The position numbers and the translations under genes are program-made. Below the pieces are notes generated by a model that searched no databases, had not been told where the DNA came from, and saw only the letters and a program-made list of their open reading frames with translations. This document shows positions 25,044 through 61,275 of a stretch of DNA of 64,000 nucleotides, piece after piece; the first letter of the stretch is position 1, and every line of letters begins with the position of its first letter. The stretch is from Bryobacteraceae bacterium (GTDB taxonomy: Bacteria; Acidobacteriota; Terriglobia; Bryobacterales; Bryobacteraceae), in NCBI GenBank assembly GCA_051003795.1, contig JBPCKZ010000152.1, forward strand, positions 7,520-71,519, given 5' to 3'.

Positions 25044-25090
25044 ACGGACGATGATACCCCGGACGTTACACTGCGATAAAGTTAGATCCC

Positions 25091-28296: not shown

Positions 28297-28387
28297 TCGG
28301 TTTTCACCACGTTAAATCCGGTCCGATGTAATCTTATCCAAATCGGGATTCTGGAATATCCAATGTCGATCCCATTTCCGAGCACCC

Positions 28388-36161: not shown

Positions 36162-37172
36162 ATTGCGCGCCAGTTTATCAAATTTTCGAAATGGCCCGGA
36201 ACAAAAAGTCCGGAATGTTCGGTAACGGCCGCTTTCGCAAAGATTTTCGATTCATCTCAATCGTTTGCGATCCTCGCGCTGCATCGCGCCCACGATCCGC
36301 GCCTAACATCCAACCAGAAGTACCTTCGTGGCCACGAAGCTTTCGTCAGTAGCACGGTGAACTGCCTCCCGGCGCCCTAGAAAGGCTCGACGCATGGCTG
36401 GAATTCCCAGACTATGCCAACGGGAGCATTAGGAATCGATTCCCGGCAGAGAGTAGCGCTGGTTAGCCGAGCGGGCGCGGGTCAAGCTTTTCGAAGCGGG
36501 ACCGGCGTGACCAACTGTGCGATCATTCTGGCACTTACCCCAATCACCCCGCACGAGGCCGGTCCAAACGACCGGCCTCGCGCGGAGACGAAACCCGAAT
36601 CAAAATGCCGCCCGCCAGTCCGTAGTGTCTATCGATCTCAGTCGATGTCGCGAATCCGTTTCATCACCGCTTCAACCACCCGGTCGCAATGCTCTCCCAG
36701 AAACCTGCTGAGGCCCAGGCACTCCGCCGTTTCCGCCGTTTGGCAAGGGAACTTTTTACGACCCCCCGGTTGAGCGATGCCACGCAATTTCCCATCGCCG
36801 CCAAAGCCGGTTTCCCGGAAATGTGGTAAACGAACCGGATCTGATCGCCCCCAAGCTCGCGGCTCTCCACTTCTACCAGCTTGCGATTCGAGCGATCCCA
36901 GCGGTTATTTTGTTGCTTATATCGAATGACACACACGCGCGGATTTCCGCGTCCCGCTAGGTTGATTTACGAGCGTGGAAGTTGCTAAGCAAGTGCATTT
37001 CAGAGCAAATGCCGATTCGGCTTGAGATCAGGCAGGTCCCCGCGTAGTACAATCATTCCCTCCCTTGATCGACGGGAATGAAGTCTGGGGCGGTCAGCGG
37101 AGCTCGTTATCCCGCCAGCGATGCTGGTCAACCAGGCGCTTGAACCTAAGATCGTCTGTACAGGAGGACGCA

Positions 37173-37640
37173 ATGCGACATATCGGAACCAAGTTGTTTA
37201 TCGTTGCGGCACTTACCGGGTTGGCGGCTTTTGGAGCCGACAATTCCCTCGGGACCTGGAAGCTGAACATGGAAAAATCGAAATTCCATCCGGCACCCGG
37301 TCCAGTCAAGAGTCTCACGTCCACGCGAGAAGCATCGGATGGCGGGGTCAAGGCAACCAGCACGGGAGAAAGGGCTGACGGCACTCCGGTCAACGCCAGC
37401 TACACGGCAAAATACGATGGCAAAGAATTTCCCGTGACCGGAGCCCCATGGGACACGATGACTCTAAAACAGGTCAACGCGAATACCTTAACCGGCACAA
37501 CCACGAAATCCAGCGGAAAGTATCGCGGCACGAGCCGAACGGTGATTTCGAAAAATGGCAAGACCATGACTACTACCAGTAAAGGTACCGGCGAAGACGG
37601 CAAGCCGTTCCACAACGTTATGGTTTACGACAAGCAGTAA
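37173..37640 (+). CDS. small secreted protein (beta-rich, lipocalin-like guess)
   Basis: ATG 37173 preceded by CAGGAGGA. MRHIGTKLFIVAALTGLAAFGA signal. T/K/G-rich beta-strand pattern. Confidence 0.6.
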   Translation: MRHIGTKLFIVAALTGLAAFGADNSLGTWKLNMEKSKFHPAPGPVKSLTSTREASDGGVKATSTGERADGTPVNASYTAKYDGKEFPVTGAPWDTMTLKQVNANTLTGTTTKSSGKYRGTSRTVISKNGKTMTTTSKGTGEDGKPFHNVMVYDKQ

Positions 37641-37645
37641 AGCTG

Positions 37646-38896
37646 TCACTCGTATCGCAGAGCTTCGACCGGATCCAACCTCGAAGCCTTCACCGCGGGC
37701 CAAGTTCCGAAAAACAGCCCGATCGCCACCGACACCGTAAATCCCGCGATCACCGCCCAGCTTGGAACTTCGGATGGCAGCGATGGAACCAGCGCCGCTA
37801 TCAGCATCGTCGCCAGAACGGCGATCAGAATCCCCAGCACGCCTCCCACGCCCGTCAACGCCATCGCTTCCGCCAGAAACTGCCCGACGATATCCCGCCT
37901 CCGCGCCCCAATCGCCTTGCGAACCCCGATCTCGCGCGTGCGCTCCGTGACGCTCATCAACATAATGTTCATTACGCCGATGCCGCCCACCAGCAATCCC
38001 AGCCCGGAGATGGCAATCGCCACCAATCCGATCAGCCCGGTAATCTTGTCGAACTGCTCGATAATCTGATCGGGCGTCGAGATGCTGAAATCGTCCGGCT
38101 GGTTTCGCGGTGTTCGCCGGACCCGTCGGATTATCTGCTCGACTTCGTCATACGCCTGCTTGCGCATCCCCGGTTTGGCTTTCGCCACGATCATGAACCG
38201 GTCCACCTGCGGATAGCGCGATTCGGCCGTGCGCAGCGGAATCACGATCTGCGTATCGTCGTCGTTCTGGCCGAAGAATCCGCCCTTCGCTTTCGCGAAC
38301 ACGCCGATCACGGTGTACTCGGCGCCATCGCACGTGAACGTCCGGCCCACGGCATGGCCGTCCGGATACAGCGTGTCGGCCAAATCGTTCCCCAGCACGG
38401 CGACGTGGGCCACGCGCGCGTCTTCTTCGGGCGTGAAGTAACGCCCGGCGCGGAAATCCCGAGGGGAAAGGGAAGTGGAATTCGGCGTCGTGCCGATCAC
38501 CGAAAGCGAATCGGATTCAAAACCCGGAACGCGCGCGGTGAGCGGATTTCCATTCACCACGTTCGGAATGAACAACGTTATGCCGACATCCTCCACCGAA
38601 CTCGCGGAGCGCCGGATCGCATCCGCGTACTCCGGCAGAATCGCCCGGCGCTTGCGCTCTTTTTCGGAGCCGCGGCCTTGCGGAGGGCCGCTGATCTTGC
38701 TAATGAAAACGTTGTCGGGACCCAACTCGTCGAAAAACGTCACCACGCCCTTGCGCAACCCTGTCAGCAGAGACGCCACCGTAACAACCGTCGTGATCCC
38801 AATCACGATTCCGAGAATCGTCAATAGCGAGCGGAAGCGATGCGTCCACACGGCGCCGAGCGCCATGGTCAAATTTTGCGCGGGGCTGATGTTCAT
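37646..38896 (-). CDS. ABC transporter permease, MacB/FtsX type
   Basis: N-terminal TM (RSLLTILGIVIGITTVV), large periplasmic domain, C-terminal FtsX helices (ERTREIGVRKAIGARRRDI). Start at ATG 38896 overlaps the upstream stop as ATGA. Confidence 0.88.
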   Translation of the reverse strand: MNISPAQNLTMALGAVWTHRFRSLLTILGIVIGITTVVTVASLLTGLRKGVVTFFDELGPDNVFISKISGPPQGRGSEKERKRRAILPEYADAIRRSASSVEDVGITLFIPNVVNGNPLTARVPGFESDSLSVIGTTPNSTSLSPRDFRAGRYFTPEEDARVAHVAVLGNDLADTLYPDGHAVGRTFTCDGAEYTVIGVFAKAKGGFFGQNDDDTQIVIPLRTAESRYPQVDRFMIVAKAKPGMRKQAYDEVEQIIRRVRRTPRNQPDDFSISTPDQIIEQFDKITGLIGLVAIAISGLGLLVGGIGVMNIMLMSVTERTREIGVRKAIGARRRDIVGQFLAEAMALTGVGGVLGILIAVLATMLIAALVPSLPSEVPSWAVIAGFTVSVAIGLFFGTWPAVKASRLDPVEALRYE

Positions 38897-40146
38897 TCGG
38901 AGCGCAACGCCTCGATCGGATCGAGCTTCGCCGCGCGCGATGCCGGATACCATCCGGACGCCACGCCCACGATGGTCGAAACCGCGAGAGACACCAAAAT
39001 GTAAGGCCACGTAATCCGCATGCTAATGTCGAACACGCGCCCGACGATCTGCGTAACAACCGCGCCCAGCGCCACTCCGAGCGCGCCCCCCATGCACGCC
39101 ATCAGCACCGATTCGATCAGGATCTGCAGCATGATATCGAACCGCCGCGCTCCCAATGCCTTGCGGATTCCGATTTCGCGCGTGCGCTCGGTCACGCTCA
39201 CCAGCATGATGTTCATGATCACAATGCCGCCCACCAGCAGCGAGATGCACGTCACCGGAATCACGACCGCCGTCACAAGGGCGAGCAGCGTATCGATGAA
39301 TCCGCGGATCGCGTCGGGGGTGAGCGTGTCGAACGTGTCCGTCTGCCCCGGCCGGTTGTGAAACTTGGTGCGCAGAGCCACTCGCGTCAGATCCAACGAT
39401 TGCTGAAGGCTCAAGCCCGTTCCCGGTTTCGGCCGCCCGAAGATCGCGATCGATTGCCCCTGCCCGTACATCCGGTTGTAAACCGTGATCGGAATGTACG
39501 CCGATTTATCCTGGCTGCGCCCGAAGGCCGACCCCAGCTTTTCCTGCACGCCGACCACGACGAAATCGATTCCGTTGATCTTGATCTCCTTCCCGAGCGG
39601 AGAACCGCCATCGGGAAACAGAATGGCGCGCGTTTCGTCGCCGATAACGGCAACGGCGGTACGCGTCCGCTCTTCCTCTTCGGTGAAAAAACGGCCTTCC
39701 GTAAGCGTGATGTCGCGAATATCGACCAGCGAAGCGGAGACGCCCAGAACCGACGACTCCTCGCAAATAAATCCTTCGCGCTTGATATCGGCGCTGTGCT
39801 GCTGGTACGGGCTGTAGAGCGTGTTATCGCTGTTGATCGATTCGAGGTAGCGGTCGTCGGCGAGAGTGAGTTGCTTGTTGCGCCGGACCTTATCGAAATA
39901 TTCCTTGCGGCTCAGGCGGCCCGCCGACGCGATCTGCGCGATCAGGTACGAATCGCTGCCGAACGCCTTCGCCGTACTCTGCTCGGCATAGAGGCCCAGG
40001 CCTTCGATGGCCGAGCCGACCATGATGACGCTCGCCACGCCGATGATCACGCCGAGGAGCGTGAGAAAGCTTCGCAGCTTGTGCACGCGAATCGAATCGA
40101 AGGCGAGCTTCAGCGCGTTTATGAGGTCGTAGCGGAAACGTGCCAT
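38893..40146 (-). CDS. ABC transporter permease, MacB/FtsX type
   Basis: Same architecture (LRSFLTLLGVIIGVASVI ... ERTREIGIRKALGARRFDI). Start placed at ATG 40146 (MARFRYDLINALK). Confidence 0.88.
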   Translation of the reverse strand: MARFRYDLINALKLAFDSIRVHKLRSFLTLLGVIIGVASVIMVGSAIEGLGLYAEQSTAKAFGSDSYLIAQIASAGRLSRKEYFDKVRRNKQLTLADDRYLESINSDNTLYSPYQQHSADIKREGFICEESSVLGVSASLVDIRDITLTEGRFFTEEEERTRTAVAVIGDETRAILFPDGGSPLGKEIKINGIDFVVVGVQEKLGSAFGRSQDKSAYIPITVYNRMYGQGQSIAIFGRPKPGTGLSLQQSLDLTRVALRTKFHNRPGQTDTFDTLTPDAIRGFIDTLLALVTAVVIPVTCISLLVGGIVIMNIMLVSVTERTREIGIRKALGARRFDIMLQILIESVLMACMGGALGVALGAVVTQIVGRVFDISMRITWPYILVSLAVSTIVGVASGWYPASRAAKLDPIEALRSE

Positions 40147-40182
40147 CCCGTGACCAGGATAACGTAAGATGAAGAATCGCCC

Positions 40183-40572
40183 TTGCTTCGCATCGCCTAC
40201 AGCATAGAATTCCTGATCGCGATCATCGCCATCTTCACATTTTGGAGCGAGGTCGGCGGCCAAGGGCATCTCGATCTGATGGCGTGGTATTGGAAGCTTG
40301 GTTTTTCGCTTGCCGCCGCCGCGGTTTGCCTCAAACTCACCGCCGCGACGCTCGAGAAGCAGAGCGTCTGGTCGAAATCCGCGCTCCGCTGGCTGCTGGC
40401 GCTTGTGCTCTTAGCCGCCGGAGCCGGCGCCGTGACTTATTTTTATCATCTCAACGAACCGGCGGATACCGACGATAGCGAGGCAATCTATTCGTCGAGT
40501 TGGCGCGCCATCGAGTCGCAAGCGACCTCGATACATGGCGATTTTGTGGTAGTGGTTCATTTTGAAATTTGA
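40183..40572 (+). CDS. hypothetical membrane protein whose last ~8 codons come from an inserted element
   Basis: Three or four hydrophobic helices. TTG start. The 8-bp duplication (40540-40547) and left terminal repeat (40548-40564) lie inside its 3' end. Confidence 0.4.
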   Translation: MLRIAYSIEFLIAIIAIFTFWSEVGGQGHLDLMAWYWKLGFSLAAAAVCLKLTAATLEKQSVWSKSALRWLLALVLLAAGAGAVTYFYHLNEPADTDDSEAIYSSSWRAIESQATSIHGDFVVVVHFEI

Positions 40573-40604
40573 CACTTAAGTACCGAATTGGTAACTAAAT
40601 ACAA

Positions 40605-40698
40605 CGCCGTTAGTGAGGAATAATCCACCGCAGATCCCCGCCGGGCCACTTCGGGCGGGCGTGTCATCTGGACTGAATCGGCGAACAGAAGCCGACTT
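40605..40698 (+). repeat. 94-nt subterminal block (L-type end), copy 1
   Basis: About 91% identical by eye to the reverse complement of 49709-49801 (cgccgttag...ccccgccgg.ccac.tcggg...catctggactgaatcggcgaacagaagccgactt). Confidence 0.85.
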
Positions 40699-41029
40699 AT
40701 CGTTCCTAATCCGACCGACGTGGTCGAACGCTGCTTCTGGATTGTGACTGTCATAATCACGGAATGCCGGTTACACGACCAACTGCACCGCGTGATGCTC
40801 AGCAAACCCACACACCTATAGCACGCGGACCTCTCCCTCGGCGTTGTTGTTGGTGCGGAACGATGAAAATCGGAGAAGCAGTACTCTGTTGTATCTATAC
40901 TGATATTTGATCCCTGAGGCAAAGATTTTAGAGGTGGAAGCGTCTCGACACGAAATGCAAATCATCGATATCGACAAAGAGCGCAGGAAATGTTAGCTTT
41001 CGCTGCTGTCCGGAGGATCGCTACTGCGG

Positions 41030-41596
41030 TCAACGCCTGAGGACCTTAAGCGGCAGACTGAGTCCCTTCGCCTTGCAGGCAATCTCCCCTTCCTTAACCG
41101 CGAAATCGTACGGCTTGCCTGCAGCGATGGCATCGTAGAAGCCCTCTGCAAACTGAATTGCGGCGACGTCATCGATAGCCGCTTCCATCCCAATAGTCAA
41201 ATCCGCCAGTGGTTCGGTGCGGGCTGCCAGTGAACTGCAAGCGTTGAGAATCACGCATTTTATGGATGGGTGGTGGGCGACGAGCGAGGATATGGCGTCG
41301 ATCGGTGAAACGGCGATTTTGCCGGACGCGTCTTCAAACAGCAGTGAATCGAAGTCGCCGTGCCCGGAGAAATGAAGTATTTCGTAACCGTCATCCAGCA
41401 GGGCGTGCCGAACATCATCAACGGTTGTGGCGTGTCGCACTTCAAGAGAGACGCAGTCTCGCGCCTTCCCGCGCTGAAGGGCGTGGCGGATAGCGCGATC
41501 CTCTTGTGTAAGCCGCAAGTTGCCGGTTCCTTCAGGGTTCGCGAAAACGACGATGACTCGTATTTTAGGAATCGCCGCGCGGGCGACATTCTCTCT
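41030..41596 (-). CDS. CHAT/caspase-like protease domain (C-terminal part of a frameshifted gene)
   Basis: ILHFSGHG (His) and VILNACSS (Cys) dyad. The frame is open upstream of the annotated TTG back to TGA 41597-41599 and reads PKIRVIVVFANPEGTGNLRLTQEDRAIRHAL, the usual CHAT N-terminal strand, with no start codon of its own. Confidence 0.7.
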   Translation of the reverse strand, partial: RENVARAAIPKIRVIVVFANPEGTGNLRLTQEDRAIRHALQRGKARDCVSLEVRHATTVDDVRHALLDDGYEILHFSGHGDFDSLLFEDASGKIAVSPIDAISSLVAHHPSIKCVILNACSSLAARTEPLADLTIGMEAAIDDVAAIQFAEGFYDAIAAGKPYDFAVKEGEIACKAKGLSLPLKVLRR

Positions 41597-42729
41597 TCAA
41601 GGCTTTGGCCGGACGTGCCCGCCTCGATTTTCAAATCTTCTGGAAGCCGCTCGACGATTCTGCGGACGGATAACACCAGTTCTTCCAATTGTCCCTGCGG
41701 GCGCTTACTTCCCGCGTAAGTCGCCCCGGCGCCAATCTGAATGGCGGCGCTGCGAAGGCTCTGGGCGGTCGTAGCGTCGGTGCGACCTACTACGTCGGCG
41801 ATTCGGAGACATAGCAGGATGAGGGCTTTATTCGTGTCGCCACGGTCAAACGGAAAACGATCAATGAGACCGGAATATCCACCAAGTCTCTCGAGGACTT
41901 GGGAAGATATTTCCAGCGACTCCCGGCTGAAGGTTTCGTGGTCCATCCGAAAGAGTTGCTCTACCCCCTCGATGTCGAGTTCCTTCGCCATGCGGCCGAC
42001 CGTCGCCTCAGGAACCAACGGGCATACGCAAAGTACATGCCCACACTGTACGCACAAGCCGGGATAACGCTTAATCAGTTCGTCCTCAAGCGAAAAAGGC
42101 GTGTCGGTTTGCTGCTGCGCCATAAGTTCATGCTCGTTGGCAAGGCCCATCAGATACGAGAAAACATCGGACGCCTCACCGGCAAAGTATTTGGGATATC
42201 GATCAAAGACGCGGACTGCTTCGGCCAGCTCGCCAAGTTCTTCGAATAATCCTGTGACGCTGCGCCCGGAGCGTGCGTCGTCAATCGAACGCGGGTAGAT
42301 ATCGGAAAACATTCGCTGCCACCCGTTCAGTGATTTGGGCCTCAGCAAAACGTTCGATTCCTTCGCCCGTTTGAGTGCCGCGTGATCGACCGTCTTGCTC
42401 GTCCCACGGGTGGTTTTGCATGGCAGGTCCTGATGGGGCTTCAGCCTGCAGTACGGACATACGTAGGGGTACTTCCGAAATACGAGTTCCTCAACGCTCG
42501 AAACGCGAAACTTGGCCATCAGGGGGAAAAACCATCCGAGGGCTTTGCAAAGAGCATCCAAAAAACTGAACCCTTCGCGTTTCTTATTCCGGGAGTGCAC
42601 GGTAAGCATTCCGCATACTTCTACGAAGTGCGTGAACGTTGCTGCCGCAGGCCGGTGAGCGTTCTGCTCACTGTACGTGTGGGCGATCATCTTATAAAAA
42701 TCGTCGAGCCTCAGTGGCGTGTCGCTCAT
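41589..42729 (-). CDS. tandem MazG-like nucleotide-pyrophosphohydrolase-type domains (N-terminal part of the frameshifted gene)
   Basis: LFEELGELAEAVR ... EASDVFSYLMGLANEH ... KRYPGLCVQCGHVLCVCP is a MazG-like core with a terminal Cys cluster. A degenerate first copy precedes it (FVEVCGML ... RKYPYVCPYCRLKPHQDLPC). Start at ATG 42729 (MSDTPLRL). The ORF tail beyond ~41590 is out of frame over the CHAT part. Confidence 0.65.
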
Positions 42730-42887
42730 GATGTGTCGCTCAATGATCGTTCGCTTGATGTATTGGACCACACGCCGGAATGACACCCACCCGGCCGACG
42801 GGGTCTAGACCCTCAGATTAGCGATCTGGTCGGGAGGTCTTTGACCTGACCGTGGGGGATCTCGCCGGGTTAGTAATGATAAACGCG

Positions 42888-43021
42888 CTTCCGTTCGCCT
42901 AACGGCCAGGATCGTCGGCAATCCGGAAGTGGGCCGCATTCCCGAATTAACACATAGGTCCTCCCTTGTCGCCCAGCGTTTACCGAACATCTCGCTCGAC
43001 GATTCAAACTGACCCACTACC
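42888..43021 (-). repeat. 134-nt terminal block (A-type end: TIR plus conserved leader), copy 1
   Basis: About 90% identical by eye to 47555-47688 in inverted orientation. Lies directly upstream of, and in the same direction as, the cargo gene. Confidence 0.9.
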
Positions 43022-43049
43022 GATTTTGTAGTCCTGAAACCTAAATGCA

Positions 43050-44783
43050 TTAACTCGCCAACTCGAGCTCAATCCTTTTCTTATCCGCGTCCAGCCTCGC
43101 GATCCGGAAACTCCTGATCTGCCCGGCCCTCGCCGGCTCTTTCTTCACCGGGGCCGACAAGTCGCTCTGCCCCTGCTTCCACTTATTCGCCAGCATCGAA
43201 CTCAACGACGAAACGTCGGCCCGCGCGCCGGCGGCCTGTTTCTCTTCCCGATTCTCGCCGGCAATGTTGCACGAAGCCCGCACGCCTTCGCCCAACTCCA
43301 CTGTTGCCTTCCCGCGTGAAACGTCCGACACCCGCCCCGTCACCATGTCGCCTTCTTTATGCTCGGCGATGTACTCGTCGACCGACGTCGGCTGTAGTTG
43401 CTTCAATCCCAGCCGTAGCCGCCGCTTCGCGCGATCCATCTCCAGCACAACCGCCCGGACCTGCTGTCCCGCCTTCAGCACGTCCTGCGGATGCTCGACC
43501 CGCTTCTCCGCGCTGATGTCGCCGACGTGGATCATCCCCTCGACGTTTTCGCCCAATTGCACGAACGCCCCGAACTTCGTGAGACTCGTGACCGGCCCTT
43601 CGACAATCGTGCCCGGCTGATATTGTTTCTCCGCTTCCGCCCACGGATCTCCGAGCGTCTGCTTCAACCCTAAAGCAATCCGGTGTTCCGCCGGATTCAC
43701 GCCCAACACAACCACTTCCACCGCGTCGCCGGGCTTCAGCACGTCGCTCGGCTTCCGCACTTTTTTCGACCACGACATTTCGGACAGATGAACCAGCCCA
43801 TCGAGCCCCGGCTCGAGTTCGACGAACGCACCGAAATCCGCGACCCGCGAAACCGTTCCCTTCACGCGGTCGCCCACGTGGAATTTTTCCGCTACCTGGG
43901 TCCACGGGTCCGGCTGAAGCTGTTTCATTCCGAGCGCAACCCGCCGCTTGTTCGGATCGATCTTCAGAATCCGGACGTCCACCTGCTGCCCGACGGTCAA
44001 AACATCGGCGGGCTTCCCGATGCGCCCCCACGAAATCTCGCCGACATGCAGCATCCCATCGATGCCGCCGATATCGACGAACGCGCCGTAATCCATGAGG
44101 CTCCGCACCGTGCCCCGCACCTCCATGCCTTCGCGCAAATCGGTGAAGCGCTGCTCGCGGGAATGCTTCTCTTCTTCTTCCAGGACCACGCGCCGGTCGA
44201 CCACCACGTCTTCATCGGCCACATCGAGCTTGATGATCCGGCAGCTGATTTCCTGCCCCACCAGCGCCTGCAGCTCGGCCGCGTCTTTCGTGCCGCTGCG
44301 CGAACCGGGCATGAACGCGCGCACGCCCACATCCACCGTGACGCCGCCCTTGATCAATCCCGCGACCACTCCGGCGATGGCCCGCTTTTCCGCGAACGCC
44401 TGTTCCAACGAAGACCAGTCCTTCGGCCGCGCCACTTTAATCAAAGAAAGCTGATAATAACCCTCCGGATCGCGCCCCGTGATCGCCGCCTGCATCTTGT
44501 CGCCCTGCTTGAGGGTCAAATTTCCCGCCGGATCGCGGAAGCCTTCAACCGGCATGATGCCCTCGGTCTTCAGCCCGACATCGAGGAAAACCGACTCGCC
44601 CGAAATCGCGACCACGGTTGCTTCCCGCCCTTCCGTCCCGCCCCCCGGGGCGTTCGTGCGCGTGCCGTGCGACCGCTCGTATTGGCTCAGGATGTCGCCG
44701 AAGGAGGTATCGGCTTCAGACGGAGTTGGGGCTTCGAGGTCGCGCGTTTCCGAGTCGCGACCCAGGGAGTTGTGATTGGCCAT
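43050..44783 (-). CDS. rpsA: 30S ribosomal protein S1
   Basis: Six S1 repeats (e.g. GTVRSLMDYGAFVDIG, GTVSRVADFGAFVEL, GPVTSLTKFGAFVQLG). Start at ATG 44783 (MANHNSLG). The 97-codon upstream ORF extension is R/H-rich and implausible. Confidence 0.93.
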   Translation of the reverse strand: MANHNSLGRDSETRDLEAPTPSEADTSFGDILSQYERSHGTRTNAPGGGTEGREATVVAISGESVFLDVGLKTEGIMPVEGFRDPAGNLTLKQGDKMQAAITGRDPEGYYQLSLIKVARPKDWSSLEQAFAEKRAIAGVVAGLIKGGVTVDVGVRAFMPGSRSGTKDAAELQALVGQEISCRIIKLDVADEDVVVDRRVVLEEEEKHSREQRFTDLREGMEVRGTVRSLMDYGAFVDIGGIDGMLHVGEISWGRIGKPADVLTVGQQVDVRILKIDPNKRRVALGMKQLQPDPWTQVAEKFHVGDRVKGTVSRVADFGAFVELEPGLDGLVHLSEMSWSKKVRKPSDVLKPGDAVEVVVLGVNPAEHRIALGLKQTLGDPWAEAEKQYQPGTIVEGPVTSLTKFGAFVQLGENVEGMIHVGDISAEKRVEHPQDVLKAGQQVRAVVLEMDRAKRRLRLGLKQLQPTSVDEYIAEHKEGDMVTGRVSDVSRGKATVELGEGVRASCNIAGENREEKQAAGARADVSSLSSMLANKWKQGQSDLSAPVKKEPARAGQIRSFRIARLDADKKRIELELAS

Positions 44784-44819
44784 GGGGATTACATTTTTAT
44801 TTTTGCATAAGATGTCTCC

Positions 44820-46079
44820 GTGGATGCTCCGACCAACGCTTCGACCAACGCTTCGAGGAACGCGCTGAAGCCGCAGGACGCCGTGCTGGTGTTGTTGTTC
44901 ACGGCGATGGCGGCGCTGAACCCGACCCACGATCCGTGGGAGATCGGCATGATCGTGACGTTGGGCCTGCTGCAAATCGCCGAACCGAAAATCGCCGTCC
45001 TCGATTCGACGCACGGCCGGATTGTTTGGATACTGCTGAAGCTCGGCGTGGGTTACCTGTTGATCGGCCTCACGCACGGCCTGAATAGCGAATATTATCT
45101 GATCCTGTTGCTGCCCGTGATCTCGGCGGCCACCTATCTTGGGGTGTTCGGAACGCTTCTGTTCACGGTGCTCGCGTGCGGAGCGTACTTATCTTTCATC
45201 TTCTTCGTCGATTGGACGGAGTTTCATATCGATGCCGATCAATTGCGCGTCTTGACCTTGCGGCTGCTTTTCCTCGCCATAGCCGCGAACCTGGTCAATA
45301 CTCTCGCCGAGGCTCTGCGCGTTCAATACTCGAAGTACAAAAGCGTGGCGGAACAACTGGTCGAAGCCAATCGTCATCTCGGCGAAGCCGAAGCGGCGAT
45401 GCGCCGCTCGGAGCGCCTGGCCGCGCTCGGCCAACTCTCGGCGGGCCTCGCGCATGAGCTGCGCAATCCGCTCGGAACCATTCGCGCATCCGCTGAAATG
45501 CTCGCGCGCGGAGTTTCGCAAGAAAACGAGGTGGCCCGCGAAGTAGCGGGGTTCATCTCATCCGAAGTCGACCGCACCAACTCGCTGGTCACGCGCTTTC
45601 TCGATTTCGCGCGCCCGCTCCATCTCCGGCTCGCTCCGGCCGATCCCGCCCAGGCCATCGACCGCGCCGTCGAATTGATCGAGCGCGATCCCGCGAAGCA
45701 TCCCGTCACGATCTATCGCAACTACTCGCCGGACCTTCGTCCGTTTCCGATGGATGCCGAATTCATGGAGCGCGTTTTCTACAATCTGCTCTTGAACGCG
45801 GTTCAGGCGACCGCGCCGGGCGGCGCCGTGACCGTCAAGACCAGGGTAGTGAATCAAACGGCGGAAATCGCGGTGATCGATCGCGGCTCGGGTATCGCCC
45901 CCGCGATCAAGGAAACCATTTTCAATCCGTTCGTCACGACCAAACCCGAGGGTGTCGGCCTGGGGCTCGCCATCGTTTCGAAGATCGTCGATGAGCACGG
46001 CGGTAACATAACAGTCGAAAGCGAACCCGGCAAGGGCAGCGTGTTCCGCGTCCATCTCCCCATCCCGGAAACCGAATGA
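44820..46079 (+). CDS. membrane sensor histidine kinase
   Basis: Multi-TM N-terminus. H-box SAGLAHELRNPLGTI. N box LLLNAVQA. DRGSGI and GVGLGLAI G boxes. Confidence 0.85.
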   Translation: MDAPTNASTNASRNALKPQDAVLVLLFTAMAALNPTHDPWEIGMIVTLGLLQIAEPKIAVLDSTHGRIVWILLKLGVGYLLIGLTHGLNSEYYLILLLPVISAATYLGVFGTLLFTVLACGAYLSFIFFVDWTEFHIDADQLRVLTLRLLFLAIAANLVNTLAEALRVQYSKYKSVAEQLVEANRHLGEAEAAMRRSERLAALGQLSAGLAHELRNPLGTIRASAEMLARGVSQENEVAREVAGFISSEVDRTNSLVTRFLDFARPLHLRLAPADPAQAIDRAVELIERDPAKHPVTIYRNYSPDLRPFPMDAEFMERVFYNLLLNAVQATAPGGAVTVKTRVVNQTAEIAVIDRGSGIAPAIKETIFNPFVTTKPEGVGLGLAIVSKIVDEHGGNITVESEPGKGSVFRVHLPIPETE

Positions 46080-47419
46080 AATCGCGCATTCTGATCGTCG
46101 AGGACGAGGAAAAACTTTGCCGCGTGATCGAGCTGCAACTCGCGTCGGAAGGTTACGAAGTTGAGAAAGCCCGCTCGGCCGAAGAAGCTCTTTCCATGAT
46201 GGATCGCGCCGATCTCATCGTCACCGATCTGCGGCTTCCCAAGATGGACGGGCTGGAGCTGCTGGCGCTCGCCCGGCGCCAGAACGCGCGCGCTCCGGTG
46301 ATCGTGATGACCGCTTATGGCACGGTGGAGACTGCGGTGGAGGCCATGAAAACGGGCGCCGTCGATTTTCTGCTGAAGCCCTTTTCGCTCGATCACTTGA
46401 GCGCCGTGGTGCGTAAAGCGCTGGAGGTTCGCAATCTTCGCGATGAGAACCGCCAGTTGCGCGAAGAGCTTGGCCAGCGATACACCTTCGACAACATCGT
46501 CGGTCGGAGCGCCCCGATGCAGGAGATTTTTGCGACCGTGATGCGCGTGGCTCCCACGCGCGCGACGGTGCTGCTGGCGGGCGAGAGCGGCGTCGGCAAA
46601 GATATGATCGCGCGCGCGATCCATTTCCATTCGCCGCGCCGCGACCGCCCGCTGGTGAAGATCAATTGCACCGCGCTGCCGGAAAATCTGATGGAGAGCG
46701 AGCTGTTCGGCTATGAAAAAGGCGCGTTCACGGGCGCTAACGTCTCGAAACCCGGAAAGTTCGAGCAAGCCGACACCGGCACCGTGTTTCTCGACGAGAT
46801 CGGCGACGTGCCCGCGTCCGTTCAGGTGAAATTATTGCGCGTGCTGCAGGAACGCGAGTTGGAACGGCTGGGAAGCAACAAGACCAAGCACATCGATGTC
46901 CGCGTGATCGCGGCGACCAATCAGGATTTGCGCGCCGCCCTCGAGCAGGGCACGTTTCGCGAGGATCTTTATTACCGCCTGAATGTCGTTCCCATCGAGA
47001 TTCCGCCGTTGCGCGAGCGCAAGCAGGATATTCCGTTTCTGGCCGGGCATTTCGTGCAGAAACTGGCCGCCGATTCGGGCAGCCGCGTGGAGAAAATCAC
47101 GCAGCCCGCGATCGACAAGCTGCTGACATATCACTGGCCCGGTAACGTCCGCGAGCTCGAAAATGTTATCGAGCGCAGCCTGGTGATGTGTACCGGGCCG
47201 GAGCTGGACGCGGCGGATATCAAGCTCGACATCCCGCGGGCACGGCAAGGTTCGGGCGATCTATCGCTGCCGGAGGGGATGAGCCTCGATCAATACGAGC
47301 AGGAACTGATTCGCCAGGCTCTCAAGAAAGCGGATGGAAACAAGAGCCAGGCCGCGCGCCTGCTCGGCCTGACGCGAAACGCCCTTCGTTACCGCCTGAC
47401 CCAAATGGGCATTGAATAA
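46076..47419 (+). CDS. sigma-54-dependent Fis-family response regulator (NtrC class)
   Basis: REC domain (ILIVEDEE ... DLRLPKMDG). AAA+ module with GESGVGKD and GAFTGA. C-terminal HTH QAARLLGLTRNALRYRL. 4-nt overlap with the kinase gene. Confidence 0.92.
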   Translation: MKSRILIVEDEEKLCRVIELQLASEGYEVEKARSAEEALSMMDRADLIVTDLRLPKMDGLELLALARRQNARAPVIVMTAYGTVETAVEAMKTGAVDFLLKPFSLDHLSAVVRKALEVRNLRDENRQLREELGQRYTFDNIVGRSAPMQEIFATVMRVAPTRATVLLAGESGVGKDMIARAIHFHSPRRDRPLVKINCTALPENLMESELFGYEKGAFTGANVSKPGKFEQADTGTVFLDEIGDVPASVQVKLLRVLQERELERLGSNKTKHIDVRVIAATNQDLRAALEQGTFREDLYYRLNVVPIEIPPLRERKQDIPFLAGHFVQKLAADSGSRVEKITQPAIDKLLTYHWPGNVRELENVIERSLVMCTGPELDAADIKLDIPRARQGSGDLSLPEGMSLDQYEQELIRQALKKADGNKSQAARLLGLTRNALRYRLTQMGIE

Positions 47420-47452
47420 CATTTGTTTGTGGCGCGGACACTCGTGTCTGCC

Positions 47453-47483
47453 GTGTCCACACTCGTGTGGACACAAGTTTTTT
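47453..47483 (+). terminator. rho-independent terminator of the response-regulator gene
   Basis: gtgtccaca-ctcg-tgtggacac (9-bp stem, 4-nt loop) followed by aagtttttt, 34 nt after the stop codon. Confidence 0.75.
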
Positions 47484-47554: not shown

Positions 47555-47688
47555 GGTAGTGGTCAGTTTGAATCGCCAAGCGAGATGTTCGGCAAACGCT
47601 GCGCGACAAGGGATGATCCTATGTGCTAATTCCGGAATGCGGCCACTTCCGGATTGCTGACGAATCCTGGCCATTAGGCGAACGGAAG
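47555..47688 (+). repeat. 134-nt terminal block (A-type end), copy 2
   Basis: See 42888-43021. Contains a perfect hairpin TCCGGAA-tgcggccac-TTCCGGA (47631-47653). Confidence 0.9.
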
Positions 47689-47954
47689 GGCCGATGCCCC
47701 ACTTGTAGCGTAACTTCGTGTAACCCACGGACCGGCTCCAAACAATAACCGTTCTCGTCATCTTCGCTGGACGCGATAGTAGCCCATGCGGACACGCCCA
47801 GATCGAGTGGCTCTAATGTCTCGCTGAGATTATTTATGGTTTTCGAGAGTTCCCAGGCGGCAGAGTGCAGTTCAGGGGAAATAGACTTGAGTTCTTTGAA
47901 TGATGTGGCGATCCGCTCTGTCGGAGGAACCTGAGGGACCTTCGGTTTAGGCAT
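47619..47954 (-). CDS. hypothetical small protein (divergent from the HEPN gene)
   Basis: ATG 47954 is preceded by AGGAG at a good spacing. 111 codons. The 3' third runs into the conserved terminal block, so the true end is uncertain. Confidence 0.35.
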   Translation of the reverse strand: MPKPKVPQVPPTERIATSFKELKSISPELHSAAWELSKTINNLSETLEPLDLGVSAWATIASSEDDENGYCLEPVRGLHEVTLQVGHRPFRSPNGQDSSAIRKWPHSGIST

Positions 47955-48136
47955 AGGAGCCAGCTCCTTAGATAAATTGCGCCTTTAAAGGCGGTACTGC
48001 GCAAGGCAAGAGCCGCGGATCAAACCGCCGGTATAAATGCCGCTCCGACCTTTTGGCAACGGTGTAACACGTTCCGGCCCTGCGGGCGCGTTCGCTCGGG
48101 TATGCTCATTGCCATGTTCGCAGCGACCTTGCTACG

Positions 48137-48850
48137 GTGAAAGTCATGGTTCCGAGCGGCCCACCGCCCATGACCGAGGCGGAATACTGGCGCGATTACG
48201 ACATCATCCGCAATGACGTGAATGCGGCCATGGTCAGCTGCTACACACATCGCGCCATCAACGACATATCCGTGTCAGATCAGAAAATCTACCAGAGACT
48301 CAATCGGCATCCGGACTTCTGGCGGGTTACGTCATTCAGCCTACAGAACGGTCTGTTCATAGTGCTGGCGCGCATTTTGGATTCGGACCCCAAACTGCAT
48401 TCGATCTATCAGGTCTTGAACGCGACAACCGCGCATCCGGAGTTCTTCAATAAGGCTGCACTGCGAGCACGAAAACTCAGCATTCCGGGCATCCCGCCGA
48501 ATCCACCGTGGCTGGACGAGTATGTTCAGAACGCCTGGGAACCAACCGTGCAGGACCTGCGCGCACTGAAGAAGGCCCTCGCTCCGCACAAGACGAAGTT
48601 CGACGACATCTACAAGCCGGTCCGCAACCAGATCGCCCATATCATTTTCAAAGACAAGCAGTCCATCTCGTCCCTTTACGGCAGAACGCTAAGAACAGAC
48701 ATTGATGAGATCCTCCGTTTTCTTCATAGTCTTGTGCGCGCGATCTGGGAGATGGCCCACAATGCCGCGCAACCGGATCTCAGGGGCGACAATTACGGAC
48801 GCCGATCGGGTGGCGGAAATCACGAAGGAGACACACGAGCTACTCCTTGA
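48137..48850 (+). CDS. AbiU2-like HEPN-domain protein (abortive-infection type)
   Basis: RNQIAH (R-x4-H HEPN motif) within YKPVRNQIAHIIF. Helical N-terminal region with LFIVLARILDSDPKLHSIY, as in Abi-type HEPN families. The 3' end may be frameshifted (see findings). Confidence 0.5.
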   Translation: MKVMVPSGPPPMTEAEYWRDYDIIRNDVNAAMVSCYTHRAINDISVSDQKIYQRLNRHPDFWRVTSFSLQNGLFIVLARILDSDPKLHSIYQVLNATTAHPEFFNKAALRARKLSIPGIPPNPPWLDEYVQNAWEPTVQDLRALKKALAPHKTKFDDIYKPVRNQIAHIIFKDKQSISSLYGRTLRTDIDEILRFLHSLVRAIWEMAHNAAQPDLRGDNYGRRSGGGNHEGDTRATP

Positions 48851-49021
48851 ACTTCCTACGCGCTCTTCGCGTAAAGGCGTGCGATCATAGCAGAGACTTT
48901 TGAAGCTTCAATGTTGCGTTGCTTCGAAATTCCGCTGAAGCGTGGTGACGAAGTGCTCCCCCGCAGCGATGCGGCATCATGACTAGGCAGGGAGATCATG
49001 ACCCTGCTGGAGGCAAACGCC

Positions 49022-49400
49022 ATGCCCGTCGTCTACCGTGTCGGCGGCGGGATACCCCTGATGATTAAACTGCCATATGCCGACGACAACTCTACTTGGC
49101 TCAGGGGCGATAATCCTTCAGAAACCCGACTGGAACAAGCAATATAAATGCTGGGAGACGCCGAACACTTAGTTTTTAGTGAAGTCGTCGGCGAATACTG
49201 AACCGGTTTGGCCGCGTCTACGTCATTCAGCCTTACTAAGTTCTGGAAAAATGCGCTCCGGCATGGAGTGCGAATGCTCCTGTATGGGGGAAAACCATGG
49301 TTCTTAGGTGACGGGAAAGTGGTATGTGATATCAGAAATCTGCGCATTGCAATGGCACAAGCGTGAGCTTTCCTGTCGCCTTTTTAAAAGCCTCTTCCCC
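49022..49400 (+). pseudogene. decayed Cys-rich gene (one frameshift, two in-frame TAG codons)
   Basis: MPVVYRVGGGIPLMIKLPYADDNSTWLRGDNPS continues only after a +1 shift as KPDWNKQYKCWETPNT*...MECECSCMGENHGS*VTGKWYVISE... No intact ORF spans it. Confidence 0.35.
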
Positions 49401-49708
49401 TCGGAGTCAACCGGTACCCCATCCCAGTTCCGCCGAGGACATAAACCGCGAATTATATTCCGCGCGCCGACCGCGCCCCCGACACCTTTAAGAGACTCGC
49501 CCGCGACGGCAGCGCTTGCCAGTTTTCCTCCGGCCGTATCTCGCCAGCGCTTCCGCCTGACGGGCCATGAAGGTCAGGCGGGACCAGATTGGTCGGAACT
49601 ACGGGCCCGATGCAAAGCCCCACGCTGGTTTATACATTCCGATTACTCTGAGACACCTCCACCGCTTTTCCGCCCTCTGCGGTCAGCGCAAGGAAGATGA
49701 GTCCCCGG

Positions 49709-49801
49709 AAGTCGGCTTCTGTTCGCCGATTCAGTCCAGATGACGCGCCAACCCGATGTGGCCGGCGGGGATCTGCGGCGCATTATTCCTCTCTAACGGC
49801 G
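49709..49801 (-). repeat. 93-nt subterminal block (L-type end), copy 2
   Basis: Reverse complement matches 40605-40698 with about 8 differences. Confidence 0.85.
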
Positions 49802-50241
49802 AAGCATAGATCTGGTGATGCCTGCCGCTTGACTCTACGAAACGCACTAGGCGGGAGTTGAGCGCGGGGCGTCTCGATAACGCCAAGGATCGACTGAGAC
49901 GCCTGCTTTGTTTACATCGCATGCGCGACGAGAACCGGCCCTTCTGATAGACTCCTACTTTCATGGCGCGCCTCGCTCACGAGCCTTGACCTGTCGCACA
50001 CACGCACCTAGTCTAGGCCGGAAGAGCTTTCTATCCGGCGGAACCCACTCTCCGTCCGGGTTCAAGTTCGAATAAGCGGCTCGAATATACTTGAGTAGGC
50101 TCAGCGACATGGGAATCCTCTGTTTTCTCCGCTCCCATATTACCGCGCGGCGACGTCGAAAGCCGTTCTCGCCGCCGCCGGACATCAACACCCTACACGC
50201 TTTCCGGAAGCGAACCGTCTAATATTCCGAAAGGAGAACCC

Positions 50242-57439: not shown

Positions 57440-57999
57440 TGTGGGCGCTTAATGCATAATGGCTGATTTTAATTTCGTCGCACGGAACGCGAGACCGTTT
57501 TATTACCTACGCCTTCAGACAAGTTGTTCTCTTCGCGCTTCGGACGTTCGACAAAGTGCACCTGTGGATGAATTCGCGGTGTTCCGACACGTTTGGCCCA
57601 AAATGCGGTAGTGGGTCAGTTTGCGTGAGCCGCTTTCAGGATTGCCTGCCGCGCAAGTCGGCGGTTTGGGCGTTATACGTCCTTGTGAAGGGGATGCCAA
57701 CTCCACACTTGCCGACTTTCGGCGGTTTGAGGCGCACCTTGTGGCTACCTCGCAGGCAACCTCCCAGCGTCGGATTCAGGCTGATAACTTCCGGATCGCC
57801 GACCACCCAGACGGAACACTCGTCGCCCCTCGCGGCAAGCGGCCATCTCGATTCTCGAGACCGTGAACGCCGCGACCGTATGTTTCAAGACCTCCACGAC
57901 TTTGTCCGGGTCGCGCGCGGAACACCGCGCAGCCCACCGACGGTGGACTTCTGCGTTCCAAAAGGTGTGGCTTTCTTGAGATACTACGAATTCCGTCTT

Positions 58000-59517
58000 A
58001 TGAAGATGACCGCTGACAAACGCGCGATCGACAAAATCTTTCGTCGTCGGGATCGTTACGAGATTCCTGATTGGCAGCGACAGAAGGTATGGAACAAGAA
58101 GAAGAAGCAAGGCCTTATTGACTCCATCCTGCGGGGTTGGAAGCTTCCCAAGTTCTATTTCGTAAAAAGCTTGGACGAGAACTTTCTCGTGGAAGACGGC
58201 CAACAGCGGCTTACCGCGATTTTCGAGTTCTTCTCGGGGGACCTAGGCCTGAGCCAGGAATCTGTTGAGATCTTCGGTGGGACGTACTACAGCGAGTTGA
58301 AACGGAACGTAGCGGACGCATTCGATGACTTCGATATCGAGTTCGACGTGATCGAAGACGCGACGGATGAGGAACTCAAAGAGTTCTTCCAGCGACTCCA
58401 GGAAGGCATGCCCCTGACGGGGAGCGAGAAGCTCAACGCGGTACCCAGCAAGCTCCGCGATTTCTGCAAGGAAACTGCAGCGAAGCACCCGTTCTTCAAG
58501 GAGACCATTGCTGTGCCTGATACGCGGTACGCGCACTTCGATATTCTCGCGAAAGTGGTCACCGTCGAGATCGAGGGCCTCGACACGGGGTTACGGCTGG
58601 ATGACGTGAAAGCAGTTTTTGAGGCGAGCAAGAACTTCGCCACCACTTCGGCGGTGGCAAAGCGCATCAAGAACGCCTTGGATTTGCTCGCTACGGCGTT
58701 CAAGGGCAACGGCTCCATGCTGCGCACGAGAACGATAGTCCAATCGCTCATCACGCTCACCTGCAAGATCGTGAGCACCAAGAACTACGCGGGCCGTGAG
58801 GCCCTCCTTAAAGAGTTCTTTGAGAGCTTCATGACCGAGTTGGCCACACAGATTGACAAGGGGCAAGAAGCCACAGACAGCGACTACGTCCAATTTCAGA
58901 AATCCGTGAGCGCCAACGTCACCGGCGCTGCCCGGACGCGCCAAGAAATCCTCCTCCGGAAGCTTTTTACGATCGCCCCTGAACTCAGCGCGATCTTCGA
59001 CCCGAGCGTCATCGCCGAGAGTGGCGTGACGGGACGCATCACGGCAGTCTCAGATTCCATCAATCAGCTCATCGAGCAGATCAATAAAAGGCACGCTGCC
59101 GCGACCGGCGACGACTTACTCAAGGCGACAAACAAGACCGCCCCGGCACTGTTGCGCCTTCGCAAGACGGTCACGACCCGCGATGCTTACGGCACGTTCA
59201 TCGATGATCTCTACTTCCTCTTCCGGGAGGGACCTGGAACTCGCGTCGACCCGGCAACCTTGCCATCGTTCGTCCACATCAACGACCTACGGACGGACCT
59301 GCGCCACGACGTGGATCATGGGGACAAGGGCAAGATTCGCTCCAAGCGGAAAAAAGCGGGTACAACCTTCGCGCTCTATGCCGGCGAGGGAACGCCGGAC
59401 ACCATCGAACCAGCCAAGTACCCACTATTCCAAGCGAACATCCTCACCGCAACAGAAGGCGACCTTCGAGCGCTCCTCTCAAGGCCGACCCCAAACCAGG
59501 CCACGCCCACATCTTGA
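58000..59517 (+). CDS. DUF262 (ParB/Srx-like nuclease fold) protein with a C-terminal R-x4-H region
   Basis: IPDWQRQKVW, LIDSILRGWKLPKFYF, DGQQRLTAIFEFF and FFQRLQEGMPLTGSEKLNA are DUF262 blocks. Near the C-terminus, INDLRTDLRHDVDHG. Start at ATG 58000; the upstream ORF extension crosses the TIR and is junk. Confidence 0.8.
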   Translation: MKMTADKRAIDKIFRRRDRYEIPDWQRQKVWNKKKKQGLIDSILRGWKLPKFYFVKSLDENFLVEDGQQRLTAIFEFFSGDLGLSQESVEIFGGTYYSELKRNVADAFDDFDIEFDVIEDATDEELKEFFQRLQEGMPLTGSEKLNAVPSKLRDFCKETAAKHPFFKETIAVPDTRYAHFDILAKVVTVEIEGLDTGLRLDDVKAVFEASKNFATTSAVAKRIKNALDLLATAFKGNGSMLRTRTIVQSLITLTCKIVSTKNYAGREALLKEFFESFMTELATQIDKGQEATDSDYVQFQKSVSANVTGAARTRQEILLRKLFTIAPELSAIFDPSVIAESGVTGRITAVSDSINQLIEQINKRHAAATGDDLLKATNKTAPALLRLRKTVTTRDAYGTFIDDLYFLFREGPGTRVDPATLPSFVHINDLRTDLRHDVDHGDKGKIRSKRKKAGTTFALYAGEGTPDTIEPAKYPLFQANILTATEGDLRALLSRPTPNQATPTS

Positions 59518-59948
59518 TCACCCCACCAATCCTGAACCTTCAGTAGGTTCCCACGGGCGACCTGCGAAAGGACTGGCCGGGTCGGCGCTTCGATCTAGGA
59601 AAATCCTGCGTCGCAAGTACGAGGCCCACACCGCGCAGACGGACGCCGCCGAAGCGGAACTTTCTCGGGCGACTCGCTCTATGGCACGGATTGGCGCTAG
59701 CCCGCATTCGGAGCTTGCAAGCTTCAAGCCGTGGAGATTTATTTTTGTCGTCTCATCATTCTGGACGGTTAACGCGCTAACGTTCCTTCTGCCGTGGGCG
59801 CAATGTGTGGAGCAGCACGTCAGCGGAATGCCGATCCGGACAATATCGCAACGTGGCTTCTCAGAACGCCGAAACCGCTTGCCGTAAAATCATCGGTGCA
59901 GCGCTCAACGGAAGAACTCCCGACGATCTATGATCGACAAGGGCACGG

Positions 59949-61028
59949 ATGTCGTTGACCCAACGCGGGACAACGTCAAAGAACCGTTCAGCAAATGGAT
60001 CTGGAAAGCCGGCGCACATGCCAACACCCGAACAAATTATAAGGATAGACGCCAAAACGTTTCAGGACTCGTTGGGCGAACTGGCGGCAACGATGGTGCA
60101 GAAGGTATTCCGGGAGGGTCGTCAGCACATTGCGGGGCCACTGTATGTCGGCGAGGATATCGCCATGCTGATTAGGTACGGCGCGAGCGTATACAACCTG
60201 CTCAACTACTTGAACGCTGACGAACGCCGCAAGGAGGACTGCTACTGGTACGTCCGTTACGGCGTAACCGGAATGTCACTGGTGCGGTCGCTTATCGATT
60301 GCCTGTATAACGTCGTCGCGATTCTGGAGGACCCAGCTGAGAAGGCCCCGCAGTACCGGAAGAGCGGACTAAAGAAGACCTTGGACGACATCGACGAGGA
60401 TCTAAAACAGTACGCCGACCAGCAGGACCGGCAGGAATCCTTGCAGCAGCGGCGGAAGACGGTCGAGTTGCTGGTACAGGGGAGCGGCTTCACGATCGAC
60501 GAAGTGATGCAACTCAAGAAGCATGAGATGTGGCCCACCTTCGGCACGTACGTTAATACAATGCAGCCTGGCGGGGTACGGACGGAGATTCAGGAGTTTC
60601 TGAAGACGTTTGCGCACTTGGAATGGCGGCAATATTCCGCGCTCTCGCACGGCGCCTATGAAGCCTTCATTGGCACTCTGGGGATGGTGCCGGTTGGGGC
60701 GTACTACATGAACGACTTCCTCCCGCATGAAGTACGGGACAAGCTCGACGAGACGTACGACTTGTTTCTGTCGATGCATATCGGCCGCTCAGCAACAGTC
60801 TTGTTGTGCATGCTTACCGAAATTCAGGTTCATTGCGGTTTCGATGGCGCGAATATTAACGAGCGGATCTGTAAGGTTTGGGCTGCACTTTTGCCTGTAC
60901 CGGAGACCAAAGAGTTGTATGACGGGAGATATTCCGAGCTCATGAAGAATCGTGGAATCGAGAAGGCGAGGGAACTTACGGTACTCTCTATTTCCAGAGC
61001 GCCGAACCCGGTCGTTGAACCTAAGTAA
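59949..61028 (+). CDS. hypothetical protein, AbiV/DUF5677-like helical pattern (weak)
   Basis: MSLVRSLIDCLYNVVAILEDP and LEWRQYSALSHGAYEAF resemble the R..E...yl..dp and y..lS..H blocks of Abi-type HEPN-like families. The start could instead be ATG 60018. Confidence 0.45.
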   Translation: MSLTQRGTTSKNRSANGSGKPAHMPTPEQIIRIDAKTFQDSLGELAATMVQKVFREGRQHIAGPLYVGEDIAMLIRYGASVYNLLNYLNADERRKEDCYWYVRYGVTGMSLVRSLIDCLYNVVAILEDPAEKAPQYRKSGLKKTLDDIDEDLKQYADQQDRQESLQQRRKTVELLVQGSGFTIDEVMQLKKHEMWPTFGTYVNTMQPGGVRTEIQEFLKTFAHLEWRQYSALSHGAYEAFIGTLGMVPVGAYYMNDFLPHEVRDKLDETYDLFLSMHIGRSATVLLCMLTEIQVHCGFDGANINERICKVWAALLPVPETKELYDGRYSELMKNRGIEKARELTVLSISRAPNPVVEPK

Positions 61029-61275
61029 AGACTCCTGAGGCTAGCGGCCGACGCAACGATGCTTGAGTTTGTGGGCCAATCACGCGCGATCCGGAAGTTA
61101 AACGCTGGACAAATTCTGCTCAGATCCCGCCTGACGGCGTAGTGTTTACCGGGGCGGTGTCACTTGGCTCGTTTGTCGGCGAACCGTTGAAGTGCTCGTC
61201 TGCGCGGGCAAACTGACCCACTACCCAAAATGCAAACAACTCGATCCCGACGATAAGATCGGCTTGGCCTGAATC

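Follow-up and report, generated by a model that had tools for sequence, protein, structure and literature searches.

What is the 2.5-kb insert within the 3' end of a gene for a small membrane protein in a Bryobacteraceae bacterium, and how did it get there? We addressed the question within a window of 64,000 nucleotides (the whole stretch of DNA analysed; contig JBPCKZ010000152.1, positions 7,520 to 71,519), for which a first-pass annotation, made from the sequence alone, had singled out the insert as the first copy of an element. This insert, hereafter copy 1, is a real mobile insertion of an already known kind, a mobile insertion cassette (MIC) of the IS1 family of insertion sequences (IS). 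More specifically, we put at roughly 0.85 the probability that it is a non-autonomous, cargo-bearing derivative of an IS1-family IS whose transposase is encoded by a single open reading frame (ORF). Such an origin explains the AT-richer insert itself as well as two more inserts nearby (copies 2 and 3), and flags the CHAT gene inside copy 1 as a pseudogene.

A direct reading of positions 40100-43300 reproduced every coordinate previously given for the terminal inverted repeats (TIRs) and the 8-mers flanking them: the left end, GGTAGTGGTTCATTTTG, agrees with the inward-read right end, GGTAGTGGGTCAGTTTG, at 15 of 17 positions, and the two 8-mers, GATTTTGT, are identical, both as the first-pass annotation had it. 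Its description of the insert as AT-richer than its surroundings holds in direction, with a GC content of 55.1% against 59.8% and 61.9% in the 2-kb flanks (58.2% in the whole window), but the difference is modest. The interior consists of ~480 nt of left end, one gene and ~290 nt of right end, the ends being made up of bare 17-bp TIRs and ~100-140 nt of non-coding subterminal sequence. Neither Pfam searches of the internal ORFs nor tblastn revealed a transposase in copy 1, and the earlier count of one cargo gene and no transposase stands, with the addition that the cargo is frameshifted. When up to three mismatches are allowed, the degenerate 17-mer has four sites in the window against 0.16 expected (four or more in none of 100 shuffles), and all four are insert ends. 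Independent Logan assemblies, made from two sequencing runs, contain both junctions: contig L121 equals window positions 40669-47454 at 100% identity and crosses the right junction, L137 equals 36350-40692 at 100% identity and crosses the left one, and L138, from the second run (SRR33880236), crosses the left junction as well, matching 39190-40692 with two mismatches in 1503 nt; the breakpoints of these contigs coincide exactly with the blocks repeated between copies 1 and 2. Copy 1 entered the membrane-protein gene in its 3' tail, where the target was cut with an 8-bp stagger.

The same ends recur far beyond this locus. A scan for the exact 17-mer in one genome per GTDB species (596 Gb) gave at least 120 loci; because about 70 single hits are expected by chance, lone hits mean little and the informative cases are inverted pairs, in which another copy, inverted and with no more than three mismatches, lies within a stretch of up to 8 kb per locus. 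The 120 genome loci listed include at least 50 such paired elements, from 68 bp to 4.6 kb in size, and among the matches listed, exact duplications of 8, 9 and 7 bp flank 22, one and three of them, respectively; with the flanks shifted 20 bp outward as a control, exact duplications were found in 0 of 47. Contigs of IMG/VR gave at least 120 loci with the 17-mer (L141-L260), by our estimate far above chance for this smaller collection, and at least 38 paired elements, with 20 exact duplications of 8 bp and two of 9 bp among the matches listed. Both sets together hold at least 88 elements, from 68 bp to 4.8 kb, with exact duplications of 8 bp in 42 cases, of 9 bp in three and of 7 bp in three, and the family extends over Acidobacteriota, Alphaproteobacteria, Planctomycetota, Gemmatimonadota, Actinomycetota and many predicted viral contigs. 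Matching duplications are missing from several IMG/VR pairs, which suggests that DNA was rearranged or that ends were wrongly paired. A consensus built from 175 ends shows no conservation outside position 1; positions 1-17 are near-invariant, an invariance that the 17-mer search partly builds in, and partial conservation (AAttt) continues as far as position 22. The worry, raised in the first-pass annotation, that the 17-mer might be a generic dispersed motif is answered by the sharp edge of conservation at position 1 and by its location exactly at the insert boundaries, in the window and in the public elements alike; the further copies of the TIR that it had envisaged exist as copy 3, as the one-ended copy 2 and as the public elements.

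The link to IS1 comes from the larger members. TIRs the same as those of copy 1 bound transposase-encoding elements in other genomes: relatives of at least ~1.7 kb contain a single-ORF DDE transposase of ~290-345 amino acids (most 290-320), which was present in at least 24 of the 120 genome loci and at least 41 of the 120 viral loci listed. These transposases are 55-66% identical to each other, with L101 (42%) as the single exception. Good reference elements lie on two complete plasmids of cultured bacteria, one of Mesorhizobium loti (CP050295.1; L122 2796-6165), where perfect TIRs and the duplication CGCTGGTG surround a transposase (CP050295.1 472548-473432), a helix-turn-helix (HTH)/M78 gene and a small ORF, and one of Acidiphilium multivorum (L123 3267-5900), complete with its duplication. 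DDE_Tnp_IS1 is the best and sole above-threshold Pfam family (35.7 bits; gathering cut-off 24.1), with a match in 10 of 49 scanned ORFs, one for each transposase-carrying element (10 of 16 elements), and the Prokaryotic Genome Annotation Pipeline (PGAP) names homologues on complete plasmids 'IS1 family transposase'. The protein is colinear with IS1 of E. coli/R100, its HTH falling in the InsA frame and its catalytic motifs in the InsB frame, where the motif pairs are CDEIW/MDEQW, TTDG/MTDG and ERQNLTMR/ERHNLNLR; an alignment of 14 transposases shows D in both DE.W and TDG, and E in ER.N, to be invariant. The ends of R100 IS1, GGTGATGCTGCC and GGTAATGACTCC, have GGTAnTG..TC in common with the end found here, GGTAGTGGGTCA.

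Set beside known systems, copy 1 has the marks of an IS1 derivative, namely same-TIR elements with a transposase, GGnnnTG ends within TIRs of ~20 bp and a duplication in the 8-9-bp range, and is not an IS proper because it encodes no transposase. With canonical IS1 (E. coli/R100) it shares the GGnnnTG ends (GGTAGTG here, GGTAATG and GGTGATG in IS1), the 8-9-bp target duplication and, through the same-TIR relatives, a transposase whose N terminus contains an HTH, which has DE.W/TDG/ER.NL motifs and which aligns along InsA-InsB. The two differ in that copy 1 is without a transposase, that the transposase of the relatives is one ORF with no InsA/InsB frameshift and ~23% identical to InsB over the DDE region, that these relatives measure 2-5 kb with passengers against 768 bp, and that 11 of 23 end bases match the right inverted repeat of IS1. 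Single-ORF transposases and sizes up to ~4.6 kb characterise the ISMhu11 subgroup of IS1 in ISfinder and TnPedia, reportedly set out by Siguier et al. in 2009; the relatives fit it and may belong there. The terms transporter IS (tIS) and MIC are defined in PMC3129680 and PMC7986276. Relatives L020, L025, L035, L042, L055, L096, L122 and L123, with an IS1-type transposase plus passengers and up to ~4.8 kb long, are tIS, whereas copy 1 has a passenger and no transposase and is hence a derivative. It does have the structure of a MIC: its TIRs are those of a known IS family, a duplication flanks it, and it carries at least one passenger but no transposase. Unlike the example MIC231, which comes from IS231 (IS4 family) of Bacillus cereus (PMC3129680), it derives from the IS1 family, and its mobilisation in trans is presumed only.

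Other small non-autonomous elements resemble copy 1 less. MITEs, the miniature inverted-repeat kind of transposable element (non-coding, under ~0.5 kb), do occur with this 17-bp type of end and with 8-bp duplications, at sizes of 68-500 bp and in many genomes; copy 1, in contrast, is 2474 bp long and holds a 1.7-kb gene. Those of 68-300 bp, whose 8-bp duplications are exact, include L017, L076, L027, L030, L041, L051, L216, L161 and L142, among others, and their hosts are Acidobacteriota, Opitutaceae, Planctomycetota, Gemmatimonadota and viral contigs. Elements with cargo, no transposase and exact duplications are common among the relatives, too (L014, L111, L074, L078, L146, L154, L156, L170 and L258). 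TIMEs and mosaic non-autonomous transposons have Tn3-family ends and 5-bp duplications (PMC4133298), unlike the IS1-type ends and the 8-bp duplication here. A composite transposon is flanked by two complete IS copies, and the ends of copy 1 are bare TIRs.

We suppose that an IS1-family transposase encoded elsewhere in the Bryobacteraceae genome, now or formerly, would have acted in trans, binding both ~17-19-bp TIRs and inserting the cassette by the 8-bp staggered cut. A number of results weigh against this account or against parts of it. The window encodes no such enzyme, the best tblastn match to two family transposases having an E-value of 0.8, and both the partner transposase and the mobilisation in trans are presumed. 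The canonical IS1 transposase, moreover, prefers to act in cis, which disfavours mobilisation in trans. The transposase of the relatives is a distant member of the family, its best NCBIfam model, transpos_IS1, scoring 52-60 bits with an equivalog cut-off of 100. The TIR was present at none of 10 loci with cargo genes 66-72% identical in nucleotide sequence. Finally, an exact 24-mer of the restored, element-free site, ACATGGCGATTTTGTAGTCCTGAA, had no match in JGI metagenomes, and the loci of relatives yielded no exact empty site either.

The cis preference would be less awkward if copy 1 had arrived as an autonomous element, with both transposase and passenger, and had then lost the transposase gene in place by internal deletion, without ever moving in its transposase-less form, and partial transposase remnants in relatives L048, L243, L175, L155 and L104, like the visible decay of copy 2, would fit such a course. 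Yet none of the three copies in the window has a detectable remnant, copies 1 and 2 have both subterminal blocks in common around different cargo, and the many short MITEs and cassettes with exact duplications show that transposase-less derivatives do insert; a clean deletion in each of three copies within 21 kb, every time independently, is therefore less parsimonious, and we regard this later loss as unlikely. The family assignment leaves considerably less room for doubt. An 8-bp duplication is typical of IS6/IS26, IS1595, ISL3 and IS256, too, and another DDE family with ends starting in GG could in principle be the source, the more so as weak IS6-type matches were obtained (Pfam DDE_Tnp_IS240, 24.9 bits with a cut-off of 27; NCBIfam transpos_IS6, 31.7 with a cut-off of 125); against the IS1 family being the sole one above its Pfam threshold, the PGAP label, the colinear R100 alignment and the shared end motif, we find this highly improbable. 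That the TIRs and 8-mers arose by chance or in assembly, the 2.5 kb being ordinary chromosomal DNA, has in its favour that the source is a metagenome-assembled genome (MAG) and nothing further, and is effectively refuted by the excess of TIR sites in the window, by the public elements with their exact 8-bp duplications and by the junctions recovered from two runs. Mobilisation of copy 1 as an IS1-family cassette remains the reading that we prefer, and the table lists its parts and neighbours.

Table 1. Features of copy 1, its host gene and the two other copies (positions in the window)
Feature	Position	Strand	Basis or remark
Copy 1, TIR to TIR	40548-43021		2474 bp
Left target-site duplication copy, GATTTTGT (gattttgt)	40540..40547	.	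direct reading of 40100-43300
Left TIR, GGTAGTGGTTCATTTTG	40548..40564	+	2 mismatches to family consensus (T9, T13)
Left subterminal block	40601..40698	.	~90% identical to copy 2 49709-49801; non-coding
Passenger: probable fusion of MazG-like nucleoside triphosphate (NTP) pyrophosphatase and CHAT protease, predicted pseudogene	41030..42729	-	Pfam, homologues, tblastn frame switch
Right subterminal block	42885..43004	.	~90% identical to copy 2 47571-47691
Right TIR	43005..43021	-	inward GGTAGTGGGTCAGTTTG, equal to family consensus; plus strand CAAACTGACCCACTACC
Right target-site duplication copy, GATTTTGT	43022..43029	.	direct reading
Host gene, small conserved membrane protein (P0001, ACR2I2_13430)	40183..40572	+	77 homologues; codons at 40548-40572 read from the element
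Copy 2, one-ended remnant, opposite orientation	47555..49801 (right limit approximate)	-	TIR 47555-47570 with 1-nt deletion; both subterminal blocks as in copy 1
Copy 3, with duplications	57599..61233	+	perfect 17-bp TIRs 57607-57623 and 61209-61225; 8-bp duplication CAAAATGC

The three cassettes lie within 21 kb of the window. Copy 2 has in common with copy 1 a stretch of ~135 nt at the right end of the latter and one of ~98 nt from its left subterminal region, both ~90% identical, and lacks the last ~55 nt; no second TIR was found in 49600-50400 at up to five errors. Its cargo is a HEPN_AbiU2 gene (48137-48850), unrelated to that of copy 1. That unrelated genes lie between end modules common to the two copies suggests that standard ends permit an exchange of the cargo between them. 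Copy 3, which begins 43 bp downstream of a convergent gene, carries a GmrSD_N (DUF262) gene that PADLOC matches as NsnA-like (58000-59517, E=1e-31) and a second gene of 359 amino acids (59949-61028) with a weak, sub-threshold DUF5677 match. In blastn comparisons with the 120 genome loci, none of the three window copies matched anything past the TIR, and a 23-mer of the subterminal block shared by copies 1 and 2, used to look for a master copy of their subfamily, had no metagenome match.

A 10-mer, ACTTCCGGAT when read inward, recurs at 42919-42935, 47645-47659 and 61085-61100, so that each of the three copies has it 90-135 nt in from one of its ends. We rejected it as a family-wide subterminal motif, as it is present in 0 of the 152 other ends of the TIR family; it may be a lineage-specific subterminal site or reflect an ancestry that copy 3 shares with copies 1 and 2. 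An RNA or regulatory role for the shared subterminal blocks was likewise rejected: an Rfam scan of the window matched no family, they fold no better than shuffled sequences (z between -0.6 and +0.8), and a search for a sigma-70-like promoter found none.

The passenger region of copy 1 consists of two overlapping minus-strand ORFs of 508 and 162 amino acids, the shorter with the Pfam domain CHAT (E=1.8e-10), which are, to judge from their homologues, one gene split by a frameshift. The joined translation matches more than 450 proteins, and the best homologues are intact single ORFs of 565 amino acids, 79% identical over 100% of the length, which JGI labels 'NTP pyrophosphatase (non-canonical NTP hydrolase)' and in which CHAT is present. 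With protein P0078 as the tblastn query, the frame switches at 41584-41593, where one nucleotide of a GAGAGA run is deleted; a Logan contig is identical to the window at this point. The deletion would inactivate the MazG-CHAT protein. Nucleotide homology to the homologues is limited to the coding sequence (41033-42731), and elsewhere these genes adjoin type I restriction-modification, M78 peptidase, IS3, resolvase, integrase and RES genes, a setting which suggests a passenger of the kind found in defence islands. PADLOC had no match for the cargo of copy 1 or copy 2. Because the cargo is frameshifted and the left TIR has two mismatches, copy 1 is probably a decaying passenger and not a working module.

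We suspect that the interest of copy 1 lies less in its own fate than in the size and breadth of its family, its apparent cargo bias and the cluster of three cassettes within the window. Using Pfam and PADLOC, we scanned 49 ORFs of 16 genome elements and 58 non-transposase ORFs of 26 viral-contig elements. The cargo comprises RosmerTA-type RmrA/HTH-M78 proteins in four members (E down to 3e-151), PD-Lambda-2_B-like proteins in five, ClpP-like SDH proteases in three, Mrr_cat and SocA/Panacea in two each, SoFic (E=5e-55), DNA methylases, parts of type I restriction-modification systems, a HigB-like toxin, an nSTAND ATPase, a Csx1-like protein and several PADLOC candidate families, to which the window adds HEPN_AbiU2, GmrSD_N/NsnA-like and MazG-CHAT. 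Also present are a TnpB and nested transposases of IS5 and IS256 types. In raw counts, uncorrected for genomic background, the cargo of the elements listed looks strongly biased towards defence and toxin-antitoxin modules. Autonomous and transposase-less members alike carry single modules of this sort, and what is documented here is a large, poorly annotated IS1-type family of soil bacteria. It is a tentative idea, and one that we would sooner doubt than assert, that an IS1-like family with the near-invariant end GGTAGTGGGTCAGTTTG acts as a cross-phyla shuttle for small defence and toxin-antitoxin modules and that its transposase-less cassettes seed a small defence island here. If the cargo bias is true, immune genes would routinely travel on IS-sized elements, as they do on Tn7-like transposons and integrons, and new defence genes could be mined cheaply by way of the invariant 17-mer.

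Some of the nested cargo deserves separate mention. L078 2604-3859, in an Acidimicrobiales MAG (JBOGFV010000236.1), is a 1256-bp element with IS1-type TIRs and the exact 8-bp duplication GCGTGCGG, whose sole ORF is the TnpB (OrfB_IS605 plus a Cas12f1-like TNB domain); TnpB is usually carried by IS200/IS605 or IS607 and not by elements with TIRs and a DDE transposase. The IS5-type transposase (DDE_Tnp_1 + DUF4096) is at L096 4019-4855, and L063 contains an IS256/Mutator-type one in an ORF of 447 amino acids.

As for the gene that received copy 1, the ORF is real, its protein having a database record of its own as a Bryobacteraceae MAG protein. The insertion falls in its 3' end, as the first-pass annotation had proposed, and its last eight codons (VVVHFEI and a stop) are encoded by the element: the variable tail has been replaced by these seven residues, whereas with the element removed in silico the ORF gains 26 codons after the GDFV that spans the duplication. 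The core is conserved up to about residue 106, the homologues nearest to the protein terminate at residues 111 and 116, and the insertion point is codon 120. Because it lies ~14 codons past the end of the core, inactivation is unlikely and the gene is probably functional. The first-pass annotation had named relatives with the same 2.5 kb and no flanking 8-mers as the case that would speak against an insertion; in the close relatives, whose versions of the host ORF are 88% and 85% identical to it, no 2.5-kb insert follows the ORF. They keep the upstream MacB genes and, because their downstream gene is a different one, are not exact empty sites. Exact-protein look-ups with the NtrC-type regulator, S1 and the cargo returned the same Logan contig only, and no empty site.

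On its other side, copy 1 neighbours a convergent gene for ribosomal protein S1. The 3' end of the host gene (window 40572) is a synteny breakpoint among close relatives (L124, L125 and L126): the upstream MacB permease genes are conserved, and the downstream position, held by S1 here, belongs in relatives to a gene for L-PSP or for a P-type ATPase. Within the window, the upstream region (37646-40269) contains two tandem paralogous ABC permease genes of MacB/FtsX type, seen as a repeat (D1) of 74% identity over 163 nt. Farther away, at 22000-28300, families of direct and inverted repeats (D2, D4, D5, D7 and I3-I8) lie in two large genes on opposite strands and look like repeat units of the FG-GAP/VCBS type, 'FNNDG'.

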